Positions 8,065 through 13,094 of a stretch of DNA of 64,000 nucleotides are shown here, piece by piece. The position numbers and the translations under genes were made by a program. Below the pieces are notes generated by a model. It worked only from the letters and a program-made list of their open reading frames with translations. It was not told the DNA's origin and did not search any database. Location: NCBI RefSeq assembly GCF_988242995.1, contig NZ_OZ547043.1. The stretch is one strand, 5' to 3'. How positions within the stretch are numbered: position 1 is the stretch's first letter; each line of letters begins with the position of its first letter.

Positions 8065-9078
8065 ATGACGCAGGAAAACGAGATCAAACGTCCCACCCAG
8101 GATCTGGAGCACGAGCCGATTAAGCAGTTGGATAATAGCGAGAAAGGCGGCAAAGTTAGCCAGGCGCTGGAAACCGTCACCACCACTGCCGAAAAAGTCC
8201 AACGCCAACCGGTTATTGCGCACCTGATTCGCGCAACAGAACGCTTTAACGATCGGCTGGGTAACCAGTTTGGTGCGGCTATCACCTATTTCTCATTTTT
8301 ATCGATGATCCCGATTTTGATGGTGTCGTTTGCCGCAGGGGGCTTTGTGCTGGCCTCCCATCCGATGTTGCTACAGGATATCTTCGACAAAATTCTGCAA
8401 AACATCAGCGATCCGACGCTAGCCGCCACGTTGAAAAACACCATCAACACCGCCGTTCAGCAGCGTACGACTGTAGGGCTTGTCGGCCTGGCGGTGGCGC
8501 TTTATTCCGGCATCAACTGGATGGGTAACCTGCGTGAAGCGATTCGCGCCCAGTCACGCGATGTCTGGGAACGCTCGCCGCAAGATCAGGAGAAGTTCTG
8601 GGTAAAATATCTGCGTGATTTTATTTCGCTGATTGGTTTGTTGATTGCACTGATTGTGACGCTTTCGATCACCTCGGTTGCCGGTTCGGCGCAGCAAATG
8701 ATTATTAGCGCCCTGCACCTGAACAGCATTGAGTGGCTGAAACCGACGTGGCGGTTGATTGGCCTGGCGATTTCCATCTTCGCCAACTATCTGCTTTTCT
8801 TTTGGATCTTCTGGCGCTTGCCGCGCCACCGTCCGCGCAAAAAAGCCCTGATTCGCGGAACATTTCTGGCTGCGATTGGTTTTGAAGTGATTAAAATCGT
8901 GATGACCTACACCCTGCCATCGCTGATGAAATCCCCCTCTGGCGCAGCATTTGGTTCCGTGCTGGGACTGATGGCGTTTTTCTACTTCTTCGCCCGTTTG
9001 ACGCTGTTTTGCGCGGCGTGGATTGCCACCGCCGAATATAAAGACGACCCGCGAATGCCGGGGAAAACGCAGCGGTAA
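8065..9078 (+). CDS. yhjD: Inner-membrane protein of the YihY/BrkB family, 337 aa
   Basis: Track ORF MTQENEIKRPTQDLEHEPIKQLDNSEKGGK...; multiple hydrophobic segments; expected length. Confidence 0.9.
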   Translation: MTQENEIKRPTQDLEHEPIKQLDNSEKGGKVSQALETVTTTAEKVQRQPVIAHLIRATERFNDRLGNQFGAAITYFSFLSMIPILMVSFAAGGFVLASHPMLLQDIFDKILQNISDPTLAATLKNTINTAVQQRTTVGLVGLAVALYSGINWMGNLREAIRAQSRDVWERSPQDQEKFWVKYLRDFISLIGLLIALIVTLSITSVAGSAQQMIISALHLNSIEWLKPTWRLIGLAISIFANYLLFFWIFWRLPRHRPRKKALIRGTFLAAIGFEVIKIVMTYTLPSLMKSPSGAAFGSVLGLMAFFYFFARLTLFCAAWIATAEYKDDPRMPGKTQR

Positions 9079-9108
9079 TTCATTGGTTTATAATGCCTGA
9101 TAAACGCA

Positions 9109-9165
9109 CGGTCGATCCCCTCGCCCCTTCGGGGAGAGGATTAGGGTGAGGGGGTACAAGCCAGC
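9109..9165. repeat. GC-rich intergenic repeat with hairpin (boxC-like family), downstream of yhjD
   Basis: Sequence cccctcgccccttcggggagaggattagggtgaggggg recurs almost verbatim at 10881-10925; contains the cccc-ttcg-gggg stem-loop. Confidence 0.55.
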
Positions 9166-9469
9166 CAGAGACCAGGCAACGACATGCACATAACCACCTG
9201 AAACTACATCTCTTCAGGAGCAAACAATTTCATACCAACTCATAACCCCAGCATATAAATCCAGTTGGTAACTTTTATTTAACCTGAAACCAGTTTTATC
9301 CACTATTTATAAAATTATGTGAAGCATTTCATAGAAGAAAAATCACTGGCCTAAACATTATCCCCTTTTTGCCTGGTTTTTGACCATTTCCGCGATTTGT
9401 TACACATTGAAATATCACTTTTGCTGTGCGTAATATGGCTATTCGTTAGCCAAAAAATAAGAAAAGATT

Positions 9470-10792
9470 ATGCAAGCAACAGCCACAACACTCGACCACG
9501 AGCAAGAATACACGCCGATCAACTCGCGTAATAAAGTCCTTGTCGCCTCTCTCATTGGCACGGCCATTGAGTTCTTCGACTTTTACATTTACGCCACTGC
9601 GGCCGTTATTGTGTTTCCGCATATCTTCTTCCCGCAGGGCGATCCTACGGCAGCAACGCTCCAGTCGCTCGCCACCTTCGCCATCGCCTTCGTCGCGCGC
9701 CCCATTGGCTCTGCCGTTTTTGGTCATTTTGGCGATCGCGTTGGGCGTAAAGCGACGCTGGTCGCCTCGTTGCTAACGATGGGGATTTCGACCGTGCTGA
9801 TTGGTCTGCTGCCGGGCTATGCCACGATTGGTATTTTCGCCCCGCTGCTGCTGGCGCTGGCTCGATTTGGTCAGGGTCTGGGCTTAGGCGGTGAATGGGG
9901 CGGTGCGGCGCTGCTGGCGACTGAAAACGCCCCACCGCGCAAACGTGCTCTGTATGGCTCCTTCCCACAGCTGGGCGCACCGATTGGCTTCTTCTTTGCC
10001 AACGGCACTTTCTTGCTGCTTTCCTGGCTACTGACCGACGAGCAGTTTATGAGCTGGGGCTGGCGTGTGCCATTTATCTTCTCAGCGGTGCTGGTCATTA
10101 TCGGCCTGTATGTTCGCGTGTCGCTGCATGAGTCGCCGGTGTTTGAGAAAGTCGCTAAAGCGAAAAAGCAGGTGAAGATCCCGCTGGGTACGCTGCTGAC
10201 CAAACATGTTCGCGTAACCGTACTGGGTACGTTCATTATGCTGGCAACCTATACGCTGTTTTACATCATGACGGTCTACTCTATGACCTTTAGTACCGCC
10301 GCCGCGCCAGTTGGGCTTGGCCTGCCGCGTAACGAAGTATTGTGGATGCTGATGATGGCAGTGATTGGTTTTGGCGTGATGGTGCCAGTCGCCGGATTAC
10401 TGGCTGATGCCTTTGGTCGCCGTAAAAGCATGGTAATCATCACCACGCTGATCATCCTGTTCGCGCTGTTCGCCTTTAACCCTCTGCTCGGTTCTGGCAA
10501 CCCGATTCTGGTTTTTGCCTTCCTGCTGCTGGGGTTAAGTCTGATGGGACTGACCTTCGGGCCGATGGGCGCGCTGTTACCAGAGCTGTTCCCGACAGAA
10601 GTGCGTTACACCGGAGCATCGTTCTCTTACAACGTAGCGTCGATTCTCGGGGCTTCCGTTGCGCCGTATATCGCAGCCTGGTTGCAGACTAACTACGGGT
10701 TAGGTGCGGTGGGGTTATATCTGGCGGCGATGGCTGGCTTGACGTTAATCGCCCTGCTGCTGACCCATGAGACGCGACATCAGTCGTTGTAA
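9470..10792 (+). CDS. yhjE: MFS transporter (metabolite:H+ symporter family), 440 aa
   Basis: Track ORF MQATATTLDHEQEYTPINSRNKVLVASLIGTAIEFFDFYIY...; many predicted TM segments. Confidence 0.92.
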   Translation: MQATATTLDHEQEYTPINSRNKVLVASLIGTAIEFFDFYIYATAAVIVFPHIFFPQGDPTAATLQSLATFAIAFVARPIGSAVFGHFGDRVGRKATLVASLLTMGISTVLIGLLPGYATIGIFAPLLLALARFGQGLGLGGEWGGAALLATENAPPRKRALYGSFPQLGAPIGFFFANGTFLLLSWLLTDEQFMSWGWRVPFIFSAVLVIIGLYVRVSLHESPVFEKVAKAKKQVKIPLGTLLTKHVRVTVLGTFIMLATYTLFYIMTVYSMTFSTAAAPVGLGLPRNEVLWMLMMAVIGFGVMVPVAGLLADAFGRRKSMVIITTLIILFALFAFNPLLGSGNPILVFAFLLLGLSLMGLTFGPMGALLPELFPTEVRYTGASFSYNVASILGASVAPYIAAWLQTNYGLGAVGLYLAAMAGLTLIALLLTHETRHQSL

Positions 10793-10800
10793 GTATCGTG

Positions 10801-10935
10801 CGGGCTGCCACCCTCACCCCGGCCCTCTACCCAGAAAGTGAACGGAAAAGCGGTACTCGTTGTTTCAACACGCACAAAACAGTCCCCTCGCCCCTTTGGG
10901 GGGAGGGTTAGGGTGAGGGGAGCACGCTGCTCCCG
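10801..10935. repeat. GC-rich intergenic repeat pair (boxC-like), inverted copies downstream of yhjE
   Basis: ccaccctcacccc near 10808-10822 is the reverse complement of the ggggtgagggtgg core; cccctcgcccctttggggggagggttagggtgagggg at about 10881-10925 matches the 9109-9165 element. Confidence 0.55.
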
Positions 10936-10964
10936 AACTCACCAGCAAACACAATCCAACCTCA

Positions 10965-13025
10965 TCACTTCTTCATCTGCGACAAAATCGTCCGGCACTG
11001 ATTAGCCTCCCCTTCGGAAGGTGAGATCAGCGCCAGTAACGCCGCCGCTGGCGTAACCAGCGTTGCCAGTGCCGCCGCAACGGCTCCTCGGGCAATCAAC
11101 GGCCCGGCTTTCACCCCAGCCTGCGGATTTTTAAATGTCCCACGCACATACAGCGGCGAACGCAGCGTGATAATCCGAATCCCTTTACTTTCTGGATCGA
11201 TAGTCAAATCCAGTTGCTCCGAAGCAAAACTTGCCGTGCCGGTAACATTGATCAACGCATTCTCAGTATCAAAAGCAAAAATCTGCGGACGCGCCACGCC
11301 GTTGGCAATATCCAGATTCGCCGCCGCACAGTTCACCCGCACCTCATCGTCACCAAATATCGCACCGACAATGTAGTTGCCGACATTCAGCCCGACAATC
11401 TCCATCAGGTTGCGGCTCACCAGCCCGTCATTCATCAACAGTTTCAGGTTGCCGTTACTGTTGCCTAAAAGCGCCGCCACCGAGTTACCGCTACCGCGTA
11501 GTTCCGCGTCACCGTTCATTTCCCCCAGCGTCTTCTGCATCAGTTCTACATCGGGCATCAGTTCTTTCAGTTTCAGCCGACGAGCCTGAATATCTGCCCG
11601 CCCTTGCATCGGTTTTTTATCACCTTCCAGATGAATATTCGCCGCAATGCTGCCGCCCGCCATGCCAAATTTCAGCGGTTGCAGGCGCAGGTCAGCATTT
11701 TTGAGGATGATATGAGTAGAAAGATCGCTAATCGGCAGGCTACTGCCATGCTCAATGCGCCGCCCTTTGAAGCGAACATCGGCATCCATGACGTCCCATT
11801 TATCGGTTTCGAAGCGGTCATAAGGCAGCACTTTGCCCGCAGGCTGAACGCTTTTTTCACCCTTCTTCTGTTCAGACCGTTTCGACTTTTCAGCTCCTTT
11901 CCCGGAATCAACGCCAATCAACGGTCCCAGGTCCGCCAGCCGCAATTGCCGCGACTCGACATCACCTTCCAGTTTTGGTCGTGGCTTGCCGGTGGTGTAG
12001 ACCAGAGAACCGTGGATATCGCTATCGCCAATGCGCCCATTAAAACCGCGATAATCAAAGACCGACGATTTTTCAGTGTCGATTTTCGCTACCAGCCGAC
12101 CATCCGTTTCAAACGGCGGGGTATCGGGCAGCAGAACGCCCGTCAGTTCATAGAGATCACCCAGCGAATCGCCAGAAAATTTAAGCCGTAAATCGACACC
12201 ACCCATCTTCATTGGGTCATTCACAACGCCATCAAAAGCAACACGGGTGTTACCAGAGCGAAAATCAGCCTGTACCGGAAATGGTGTACCTTCGCCACGC
12301 AGCGCCAGCATACCGCCTATTTTTCCCGTACCAGTGAGCGGTTCACCGTTATAACGTCCATGCGCCTTCAGGCCAAAAACGTAATCACCCACCTTTTCTT
12401 TATCCGCTTTACCTTTCGATCCAGTAACTTCGCTGAACGGCAGCGGCTTGCCTAACGGATCGACAAAAATTTCCAGATCCGCTTTGCTTACTTTGTCATC
12501 AATGGCGATCCGCCCTTGATCGAAAAGAATATTATCCAGCCGAAACGACCATGCCGACGGCTTTGCATTCGCGTCTTTGTTATCATCGCTGGCGAGATTA
12601 AATGTCCAGTTGTTGTTCTTTTCTGAGAGGCGAATCAGGCGTGCGTCGGGCTTTTCCAGTTTGATCCACGGTAGCCAGACCGTTTTGGTCAGCAGCGCCA
12701 ACGGGGCCAGCGTTGCCTCTACGCGTGGCAAATGCACCATTGTGACTTCGGGAATATCTGGTGGGTTGCCGAGAATGATGTCTTCCGCGTGTATATGGGG
12801 CCACGGCACCCAGCTGCGCCAGCCAGTTTCTTGCTTTTGCCGCTCCCACACCACGCCCAGATCGCCACGGATAGCGAACGGACGATTCAACTCCGCAGAG
12901 ACTTTCTGGTTGATGGTCGGTTTGAGTCGATTCCAGTCAAAAGTTGCAATCAAAATGATCGCCACGACAATCAACAACAAGAAAGCCCCTGAAATCGCAG
13001 CGGTTATTTTGCCTGCCTTGCTCAT
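10965..13025 (-). CDS. yhjG: AsmA-family outer-membrane biogenesis protein, ~686 aa
   Basis: Track ORF 10965..13040 (691 aa); the N-terminal TM anchor follows MSKAGKITAAISGAFLLLIVVAIILIA, so the Met at codon 6 was used as start. The 13040 start is an alternative. Confidence 0.88.
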   Translation of the reverse strand: MSKAGKITAAISGAFLLLIVVAIILIATFDWNRLKPTINQKVSAELNRPFAIRGDLGVVWERQKQETGWRSWVPWPHIHAEDIILGNPPDIPEVTMVHLPRVEATLAPLALLTKTVWLPWIKLEKPDARLIRLSEKNNNWTFNLASDDNKDANAKPSAWSFRLDNILFDQGRIAIDDKVSKADLEIFVDPLGKPLPFSEVTGSKGKADKEKVGDYVFGLKAHGRYNGEPLTGTGKIGGMLALRGEGTPFPVQADFRSGNTRVAFDGVVNDPMKMGGVDLRLKFSGDSLGDLYELTGVLLPDTPPFETDGRLVAKIDTEKSSVFDYRGFNGRIGDSDIHGSLVYTTGKPRPKLEGDVESRQLRLADLGPLIGVDSGKGAEKSKRSEQKKGEKSVQPAGKVLPYDRFETDKWDVMDADVRFKGRRIEHGSSLPISDLSTHIILKNADLRLQPLKFGMAGGSIAANIHLEGDKKPMQGRADIQARRLKLKELMPDVELMQKTLGEMNGDAELRGSGNSVAALLGNSNGNLKLLMNDGLVSRNLMEIVGLNVGNYIVGAIFGDDEVRVNCAAANLDIANGVARPQIFAFDTENALINVTGTASFASEQLDLTIDPESKGIRIITLRSPLYVRGTFKNPQAGVKAGPLIARGAVAAALATLVTPAAALLALISPSEGEANQCRTILSQMKK

Positions 13026-13094
13026 CGTTCGCTTCCTCATATTCTTCCTGTGCCAGTCCTAAAGATAGTCCAGCCAGGCGGAAAATGAGGCAGC

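Follow-up and report, generated by a model that had tools for sequence, protein, structure and literature searches.

A BoxC pair downstream of yhjE

The window that we analyzed is a 64,000-nt stretch of contig NZ_OZ547043.1 (assembly GCF_988242995.1). Our subject is a pair of GC-rich inverted repeats between yhjE, which encodes an MFS transporter (9470-10792, + strand), and the convergent gene yhjG, of the AsmA family (10965-13040, − strand). Another copy of the repeat lies on the other side of yhjE, after yhjD (8065-9078, + strand). (The window is E. coli DNA; we named the genes by the table of open reading frames, or ORFs, and by how homologous E. coli records are annotated.) The inverted sequences after yhjE are a partly deleted BoxC pair, that is, a member of a known repeat family.

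BoxC was described as a repeat of E. coli in the 1990s and is also known as the PIT element or as the triplex motif TMECO (Holder 2015, PMC4666352). PIT stands for potential intrastrand triplex element, a name that, as related by Holder 2015, is from Hoyne and Maher. The family was found again as the G-quadruplex candidates HPG1 and HPG2 (bioRxiv 10.1101/032615), and a survey of stem-loop families includes E. coli BoxC (PMC2267715). In K-12, there are five inverted TMECO pairs, and every one of them combines type A with type B (Holder 2015, PMC4666352). Because Holder et al. included strains with the full pair at yhjE-yhjG (IAI1, O26 11368, and LY180) among their 56 strains, this locus was in effect catalogued before. 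The kind of feature is already known. The initial annotation of the window did not recognize the family name.

The two strings that were quoted in that annotation are ccaccctcacccc, at 10808-10820, and ggggagggttagggtgagggg, at 10900-10920. They are in inverted orientation, as reported: a repeat finder gives arms of 28 nt each (10806-10833 and 10897-10924) that are 75% complementary and 63 nt apart. The half-consensus GGGNGAGGGNNNGGGNGAGGG, with at most one mismatch, has three matches in the 64 kb, versus none in 100 shuffles. All three are in the spacers that flank yhjE (9132-9152 on the + strand, 10811-10831 on the − strand, and 10899-10919 on the + strand), so yhjE is indeed flanked on both sides by one repeat family. 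Both spacers are intergenic. A 20-mer of the right arm and the hairpin before it each occur twice in the window (in the yhjE spacer and after yhjD), while the expectation from shuffles is about zero.

We compared these elements to the published BoxC consensus, which is CCCTCNCCC-N3-6-GGGNGAGGG-N3-GGGNGAGGG[GTC-]. The right copy, at 10885-10920, matches it exactly, and the element after yhjD, at 9118-9153, which the initial annotation had also pointed out, has one mismatch. On the − strand, 10811-10831 has one mismatch to the last two blocks of the consensus, and its C-block is missing, so this left copy is a fragment. The second loop is TTA in the right copy, which makes it type A, and CCG in the left copy, which makes it type B. 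(In the O26 allele, the second loop of the left copy is CTG.) In the type-A copy, 8 of the 9 base triads are canonical for an intrastrand triplex of the purine motif, and the mismatch is at the family's usual “mm” position. The description of the pair as the same repeat is correct in that both copies are from one family, but they are not equivalent: the right copy is complete, and the left copy is a truncated member of the sister subtype on the opposite strand.

By blastn, the median E. coli genome has BoxC at 15-16 places, and the maximum is 28-29. Just 39 of 78,333 and 29 of 73,690 such places are on plasmids. The covariance models of Rfam 15 gave no match at E ≤ 1 between 6000 and 16000.

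Anatomy of the pair

We describe the pair by comparison with ten BoxC loci of K-12, the pair at lldD-trmL, and the O26 allele. Comparing the flanks of the K-12 and O26 copies indicates that BoxC elements extend past the 36-nt core. The complete type-A core (10885-10920, + strand) consists of the C-block CCCTCGCCC (10885-10893), a loop (10894-10898), G-block 1 GGGGGAGGG (10899-10907), the second loop TTA (10908-10910), G-block 2 GGGTGAGGG (10911-10919), and a final G (10920). The 5' flank, at approximately 10858-10884, ends with TTTCAACACGCACAAAACAGTC, much like the K-12 type-A flank, which has about AAAGCGCACnnnCnGTC directly before the core. The 3' flank, at approximately 10921-10935, is AGCACGCTGCTCCCG, like the K-12 flank GAACAGnCnGCAC. 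With its flanks, the type-A element spans about 10858-10935.

The truncated type-B copy (approximately 10806-10857, − strand) is identified by the half-consensus with one mismatch, the CCG loop, and a shared flank. Reading along the − strand, it has the 5' flank CCGCTTTTCC (10844-10853), GTTCAC in place of the C-block (10838-10843), a loop, G-block 1 GGtAGAGGG (10823-10831), the second loop CCG that defines type B (10820-10822), and another G-block 2, again GGGTGAGGG (10811-10819). The flanking motif CGCTTTTCY is common to the type-B copies of the window, K-12, and O26.

The A and B elements adjoin head to head and fill nearly all of the 172-bp spacer, and the pair sits in the 3' untranslated regions of both yhjE and yhjG. 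The right arm of the long inverted repeat (10897-10924) corresponds to both G-blocks of the type-A copy, and it pairs with the left arm (10806-10833). The solo copy in the yhjD-yhjE spacer (9118-9153, + strand) is a slightly degenerate type A: its G-block 1 is GGGAGAGGA, and 7 of its 9 pairs are Watson-Crick. We also considered GCCTGATAAACGCAC, upstream of this solo copy, as half of a repetitive extragenic palindrome (REP) into which BoxC had inserted. We rejected this idea, as the positions match the conserved 5' flank of BoxC.

Alleles of the spacer in E. coli and its relatives

The initial annotation proposed comparing the presence of the repeats across strains. We surveyed the yhjE-yhjG spacer in 5426 complete E. 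coli genomes. A BoxC-type spacer is present in 1600 of them (about 30%). The other 70% or so lack BoxC at this place and keep the same flanking genes, which, by the standard that the annotation itself had set, counts against a required function. About 1470 genomes (for example O26, O111, IAI1, and LY180) have a full-pair allele that is 61 bp longer and contains a complete and a partial B copy. The window's truncated junction is found in 132 of the 1600 genomes (2.4% of the 5426). Most of the genomes with no BoxC here have REPs or bacterial interspersed mosaic elements (BIMEs) together with a hairpin, and the others have the hairpin alone. In K-12, O157, and S14, the spacer has two REPs and the perfect hairpin TGCCGGATGTCAGACATCCGGCA, and in strain A32, the spacer is 40 bp and has this hairpin alone.

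The yhjD-yhjE spacer is dimorphic. It has BoxC in about 600 of the 5426 genomes and two REPs in most of the others. With four alleles at yhjE-yhjG and two at yhjD-yhjE, both places show the locus variability of BoxC, and all four left/right combinations of BoxC and REP occur. In a spread sample of 60 genomes (yhjD-yhjE/yhjE-yhjG), about 2 were BoxC/BoxC, about 16 were REP/BoxC, about 5 were BoxC/REP, and the rest were REP/REP. The REP consensus palindrome (of the type GCC[G/T]GATGCG…CGCATC[C/A]GGC) is absent from both spacers of the window, and REPs are at the corresponding places in K-12, O157, O6, and S14. We asked if there might be a special mechanistic link between REP and BoxC, but a REP lies within 70 bp in 3 of the 10 K-12 BoxC loci that we sampled, which looks like a common preference for 3' spacers and not like a link.

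In the outgroups Salmonella enterica, Kosakonia radicincitans, and an unclassified Enterobacter, the spacer after yhjE is 38-39 bp and has a single plain hairpin (L140 2824-2862, L143 2818-2855, and L145 2824-2862). Because the outgroups carry this short spacer, we consider it to be ancestral, and the REP and BoxC alleles to be derived. The BoxC allele at yhjE-yhjG is thus derived and dispensable. The hairpin of Kosakonia and the unclassified Enterobacter, CCCTCTC…GAGAGGG or CCCCTCTCC…GGAGAGGGG, resembles the first two blocks of BoxC. In the unclassified Enterobacter, the gene downstream of yhjE is methionine-synthase-like, not yhjG.

Relative to the full-pair allele (the O26 RM8426 type), the window has the junction of a probable 61-bp deletion at 10823-10838. 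In alignments to full-pair alleles, the gap falls between CCCTCTCCCTGAAAG and CCCTC-CCCCAGAAAG, which are imperfect direct repeats. Parsimony and the allele frequencies argue for a deletion, not an insertion, and slippage or short-homology recombination probably removed the 61 bp. The window also has two private substitutions, 10829 C>A and 10902 A>G; they affect neighboring pairs, and each makes the stem weaker instead of compensating for the other. Across 9000-11000, the best complete E. coli genome is 98.7% identical, and sub-segments are 100% identical to different strains, so the 2-kb region around yhjE looks mosaic, as expected after recombination. Some E. coli entries for YhjE have 461-462 amino acids instead of 440, and the shared part is identical.

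These alleles fit the suggestion in the initial annotation that the repeats could promote local rearrangement. Control spacers vary far less than TMECO loci, for which no function was found (Holder 2015, PMC4666352). The four spacer alleles, and the probable 61-bp deletion between direct repeats, agree with this.

Predicted folding of the 3' region

The proposal that the 3' region of yhjE could fold into a long stem holds up in silico. As RNA, the + strand of 10790-10940 has a minimum free energy (MFE) of −66.5 kcal/mol (z = −3.6), and none of 200 shuffles was as good; the − strand has −75.2 (z = −2.2). In the RNA partition function, most pairs of the long stem have probabilities above 0.95, with a few positions lower or unpaired, and the long stem displaces the A copy's own hairpin. 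With DNA parameters, the long stem is still the MFE structure, but the energy is ordinary for the composition (z = −1.1). The type-B remnant on its own is unfolded (z = +1.2). In strain 2012C-4221, the stem has 9 + 15 uninterrupted pairs. Such stems have a precedent: at “palindromic” TMECO sites, partial deletions leave a stable stem-loop (Holder 2015, PMC4666352).

The core also contains a canonical four-tract G-quadruplex (G4) motif at 10898-10920, with four runs of at least 3 G and loops of 1-7 nt. When RNA folding takes G4s into account, hairpins are favored, whether the core alone or the entire spacer is folded, and published evidence does not speak for a G4 in vivo. A scan for promoters and terminators gave no terminator-like site within 10793-10964 on either strand and no promoter in the spacer.

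Nuclease genes of the YcjD family beside BoxC-like repeats

We scanned a genome collection with the BoxC consensus. The matches listed are dominated by one Mitsuaria genome, so they are not a taxonomic census; they are from Mitsuaria chitosanitabida (Burkholderiales), a metagenome-assembled genome (MAG) of Methylomirabilota, and a Contendobacter MAG. The betaproteobacterium M. chitosanitabida NBRC 102408 has over 100 consensus-grade BoxC copies among the matches listed (L018-L129). Pairs among the matches listed are oriented − + in 28 of 31 cases, and all three + − pairs are from the Methylomirabilota MAG. The palindromic ends of the listed pairs reach past the core, and their interiors are variable and often contain tandem repeats. 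In Mitsuaria, the − + doublets share the extended ends GAAGA-CCCTCACCCC … GGGGTGAGGG-TCTTC, and their interiors, of 46-272 bp, often include tandem repeats or partial duplications of the hairpin.

Mitsuaria also has ORFs of 139 amino acids with a DUF559 domain (Pfam E ~ 1e-38). One BoxC copy precedes the ATG by 25 bp, and the C-terminus of the protein is formed by an inverted copy. All three paralogues in the DNA that we examined are bracketed this way. The DUF559 protein YcjD of E. coli K-12 is 50% identical to the Mitsuaria protein. The stop codon of ycjD is inside the loop of a decayed B-type hairpin, and TMECO no. 9 is 167 bp downstream. The ycjD-fabI region (L147 1385-1620) contains, in this order, a 42-nt duplicate of the 3' end of ycjD (GGAGACGGTGCTGGAGAATATTC…CTGAACCG), degenerate pieces of BoxC, and TMECO no. 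9, which is complete; this suggests repeated rearrangement downstream of ycjD.

We inspected 13 loci with YcjD-like genes by eye: E. coli ycjD, genes from Enterobacter asburiae, Klebsiella quasipneumoniae, Kluyvera, Franconibacter, Phytobacter, and a further enterobacterial genome (L159), two metagenome contigs, and the three Mitsuaria paralogues. In all 13 cases, an antisense BoxC-like copy is at the end of the gene or directly adjoins it. The enterobacterial genes are in at least five different chromosomal contexts. Apart from E. coli ycjD, all but one of the enterobacterial ORFs run into an antisense type-B copy and stop in or near the hairpin loop, with the C-terminus …PSPRPSP; in L159, the B copy begins immediately past the stop codon. 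In every enterobacterial case that we examined, a sense type-A copy comes next, and the resulting B(−)/A(+) arrangement is the one seen after yhjE. Tandem units separate the B copy from the A copy in Klebsiella (three of 66 bp, L151/L152 1875-2050) and in L159 (about eight of 57 bp, 1885-2320). Each of these units holds a short CCCT…AGGG hairpin, and part of the interior of the O26 yhjE-yhjG allele is duplicated in a similar way. The more remote homologues on the two metagenome contigs have repeats on either side; for one of them, these are a diverged variant of the motif. By eye, the repeat variant changes with the lineage of the nuclease gene. (YcjD-family loci are L148, L151-L153, and L155-L159, with the gene at 1501-18xx; L147 1385-1961; L053 5881-6600; L054 1113-1752; L056 11518-11880; and L161-L178.)

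As an independent sample, we collected relatives of DUF559 from IMG/VR with protein patterns and tested for inverted repeats, with the test anchored on the domain. In all 13 loci that could be evaluated, the ORF is bracketed by inverted repeats, 53-134 bp long. Their scores were 56-127, compared to a maximum of 34 in 202 controls with the same geometry. The other five contigs (L165, L167-L169, and L172) stop 30-82 bp past the DUF559 domain, which would be expected if assemblies break at a repeat overlapping the gene's 3' end. The “viral” label of these short GC-rich IMG/VR contigs is doubtful. For the enterobacterial ycjD-like genes, the start-to-end test for inverted repeats was negative (scores of 14-19); both repeats are downstream.

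YcjD was placed long ago in the PD-(D/E)XK superfamily, close to Vsr (PMC1189080), and the closest solved structure to the DUF559 protein is 3hrl, an “endonuclease-like protein.” Our literature search, whose scope was a searchable library, gave no paper that links DUF559 or YcjD with BoxC repeats.

Within E. coli, the published TMECO counts that we looked up are 26-30 in IAI1, O26 11368, O111, W, LY180, KO11FL, SE11, and E24377A; 19-23 in HS and H10407 (19-20) and K-12 (23); 10-11 in O157:H7 and O55:H7; 6 in IAI39 and CE10; and 1 in IHE3034, JJ1886, and NA114. We take the high-count strains to be from phylogroups B1 and A and the single-copy strains to be from B2. We found ycjD in 3375 of the 5426 E. 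coli genomes. Phylogroups A, B1, and C have the gene instead of eefRABCD (PMC12817139). In a sample of 59 genomes, those with ycjD had BoxC at 11-26 places, versus 1-18 for those without it (P = 3e-9, Mann-Whitney test, which is confounded by phylogeny). TMECO is reported to be absent from Salmonella, and no Salmonella protein is among the best 120 homologues of YcjD.

What the doublet might be doing

In our view, the sequence after yhjE is quite probably a decayed head-to-head BoxC doublet, a derived allele and a dispensable, structure-prone relic that has no function specific to yhjE. The spacer would have begun as 38-39 bp with a single hairpin, and E. coli lineages would later have acquired either REPs, or the BIMEs that contain them, or a BoxC doublet. 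In one lineage, recombination or replication slippage between two direct repeats of ~15 nt within the doublet would have removed 61 bp. Because of this loss, the G-blocks of the B copy would be directly complementary to those of the A copy, which gives the long stem. The doublet would be a dispensable selfish or relic repeat whose demonstrable consequence is instability of the spacer, and effects on the 3' ends of the yhjE and yhjG mRNAs, if any, would be incidental. We prefer this reading because the window matches the published pattern of stem-loops left by partial deletions, together with the instability of these loci.

Several points weigh against this reading. The BoxC allele of the window is missing the ancestral terminator-like hairpin, and the repeat structure may have taken over the formation of 3' ends for both convergent genes. 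The long stem is predicted to be very stable as RNA. Also, our argument that there is no function draws on dispensability and on published negative assays of other BoxC copies, not the one at yhjE-yhjG. The stem might instead be an RNA element with a function in the 3' region that yhjE and yhjG share, either a terminator or a barrier to 3'-5' exonucleases, as for some REPs; this would resemble the role as an mRNA stabilizer that the initial annotation had raised. The stability of the predicted RNA on both strands favors this idea, and so does the fact that we detected no other terminator-like site in the spacer. Alternative alleles likewise place structured repeats (REPs) there. ACTGTTTTGTG comes after the A-copy hairpin on the − strand, but this T-run is specific to the yhjE-yhjG locus and is not a feature of the family. 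Earlier reporter work on the BoxC family, as summarized in Holder 2015 (PMC4666352), reported no promoter or terminator activity. Furthermore, the family has no Rfam match in this region, the BoxC allele is in just ~30% of the genomes, the truncated form with the long stem is in 2.4%, and the window's private substitutions degrade the stem. Overall, a role at the 3' ends of these mRNAs is possible but unsupported, and we consider a functional RNA element to be unlikely.

It is far less likely still that the element is a regulatory switch between G-quadruplex, hairpin, and duplex, or that it forms a triplex in vivo that controls the neighboring genes. BoxC has been proposed as such a switch (bioRxiv 10.1101/032615), and 10898-10920 has the canonical G4 motif. 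The isolated strand of the consensus TMECO forms a stable triplex in vitro, as seen by circular dichroism and nuclear magnetic resonance (Holder 2015, PMC4666352); the G-block 1 of the window's variant is GGGGGAGGG. But with its complementary strand, TMECO stays duplex in vitro, and dimethyl sulfate (DMS) footprinting in vivo did not support the formation of a stable triplex (Holder 2015, PMC4666352). The genes next to TMECO are not biased in their class or in their distance from the element (Holder 2015, PMC4666352). In the window, hairpins are favored over G4 in the folding, and the left arm would sequester the G-tracts. As for a chance inverted repeat in GC-rich intergenic DNA, the fold with DNA parameters is no better than shuffles of the same composition, but shuffles are expected to give zero matches to the consensus and the family recurs across the genome, which refutes this explanation.

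A further idea, about origin and mobility, is complementary to the preferred reading of a dispensable relic and does not compete with it. A miniature element coding for a YcjD-family nuclease (DUF559, of the Vsr-like PD-(D/E)XK type) might have BoxC doublets as its non-coding derivatives or partners. The nuclease would recognize the BoxC hairpin, and the doublet at yhjE-yhjG would be a relic. We put the chances of this at about even. YcjD-like genes and BoxC-like repeats are co-located: all 13 genes inspected by eye end in or adjoin an antisense copy, and all 13 evaluable IMG/VR loci are bracketed, with scores well above the controls. The enterobacterial genes are followed by the same B(−)/A(+) doublet as in the window, they are in at least five chromosomal contexts, and, by eye, the repeat variant follows the gene lineage. 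The E. coli lineages with ycjD (A, B1, and C; PMC12817139) are also those with many copies of BoxC, and Salmonella, which is reported to lack TMECO, has no protein among the best 120 homologues of YcjD. On the other hand, the link is one of co-location, there is no DUF559 gene in the window, up to 18 copies of BoxC occur in E. coli strains that lack ycjD, and the correlation between gene and copy number is confounded by phylogeny. The enterobacterial cassettes have no upstream copy of the repeat, and we saw no target-site duplications. The nuclease gene might home into pre-existing repeats. And the YcjD-like samples were chosen by sequence patterns or by proximity to repeats, so they are not an unbiased census.

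From the co-location, we infer a candidate functional partnership like that between REPINs (REP doublets that form hairpins) and RAYTs (REP-associated tyrosine transposases), or between insertion sequences and miniature inverted-repeat transposable elements (MITEs). The broadest form of this proposal is tentative, and we rate it as slightly short of an even chance: a miniature element, widespread and coding for a Vsr-like PD-(D/E)XK nuclease (YcjD/DUF559), would have BoxC/TMECO as its terminal or partner repeats, and doublets like the one at yhjE would be its ORF-less relatives. The element would be ~470-660 bp, and its inverted repeats, 53-134 bp long, would overlap the ORF at its start and its stop. 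The nuclease's target would be the hairpin of the repeat, and possibly its conserved mismatched position. If this is correct, then an origin from a miniature element would explain the patchy distribution of BoxC across taxa and phylogroups and the instability of its loci. Biochemistry and comparative genomics could then directly test the long-standing question of the nature and spread of BoxC, and a large family of DUF genes would gain a biological context.

On its own, the yhjE-yhjG locus carries little weight: it adds a site to a repeat family that is already catalogued, and the spacer in question is hypervariable across strains of E. coli. As an example of a “switched” intergenic region, it is useful: the short ancestral hairpin was apparently replaced independently by REP/BIME or by a BoxC doublet, with remodeling of the doublet by a probable 61-bp deletion afterwards. 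Comparisons of the expression of yhjE or yhjG between strains will face completely different 3' regions.

Comparison with known systems

Like a Rho-independent terminator, the window's pair is a GC-rich hairpin in a convergent 3' spacer, and it replaces an ancestral terminator-like hairpin. It differs in that no U-run comes directly after the stem, the terminator scan was negative, and the published assays of the family were negative.

Like MITEs, the pair has terminal inverted repeats around a short variable core, is under 300 bp, and is polymorphic for presence or absence. Unlike MITEs, it has no target-site duplication at its borders and no clean empty site in other genomes: between the two stop codons, the yhjE-yhjG alleles differ along the entire spacer. 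Also, solo copies of BoxC are more numerous than pairs in E. coli.

REP/BIME elements and the REPIN-RAYT system were reportedly described by Bertels and Rainey in 2011. Like these, BoxC elements are short, GC-rich, structured intergenic repeats at the 3' ends of genes. As with REPINs, inverted doublets form long hairpins, and singlets resemble decayed remnants. REP/BIME elements occupy both of the yhjE-flanking spacers in other strains of E. coli, and K-12 has REP/BIME and no BoxC at yhjE-yhjG. If the DUF559 lead holds, then both systems have a dedicated gene flanked by the repeats. However, the sequences are unrelated, and BoxC has no tyrosine (HUH) transposase. The candidate partner of BoxC is instead a PD-(D/E)XK nuclease, and mobility is known for neither the doublet nor the cassette.

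HPG1 and HPG2 (bioRxiv 10.1101/032615) are the same sequences, GGGAGAGGGTTAGGGTGAGGG and GGGAGAGGGCCGGGGTGAGGG, with the same conserved C-rich 5' flank and with frequent pairs on opposite strands. That paper proposed a regulatory switch, which has no support at yhjE-yhjG.

The closest match is BoxC/PIT/TMECO itself. The window shares its consensus, its intergenic sites, the inverted pairing of A with B, the mismatched triplet, the flanks, the spread of many copies around the chromosome, and the variability of its loci. The head-to-head orientation (− +) is that of the lldD-trmL pair, while four of the five K-12 pairs are tail to tail. The window differs in nothing essential, though its left copy is truncated, and a long stem left by partial deletion (the “palindrome effect”) is itself characteristic of the family.

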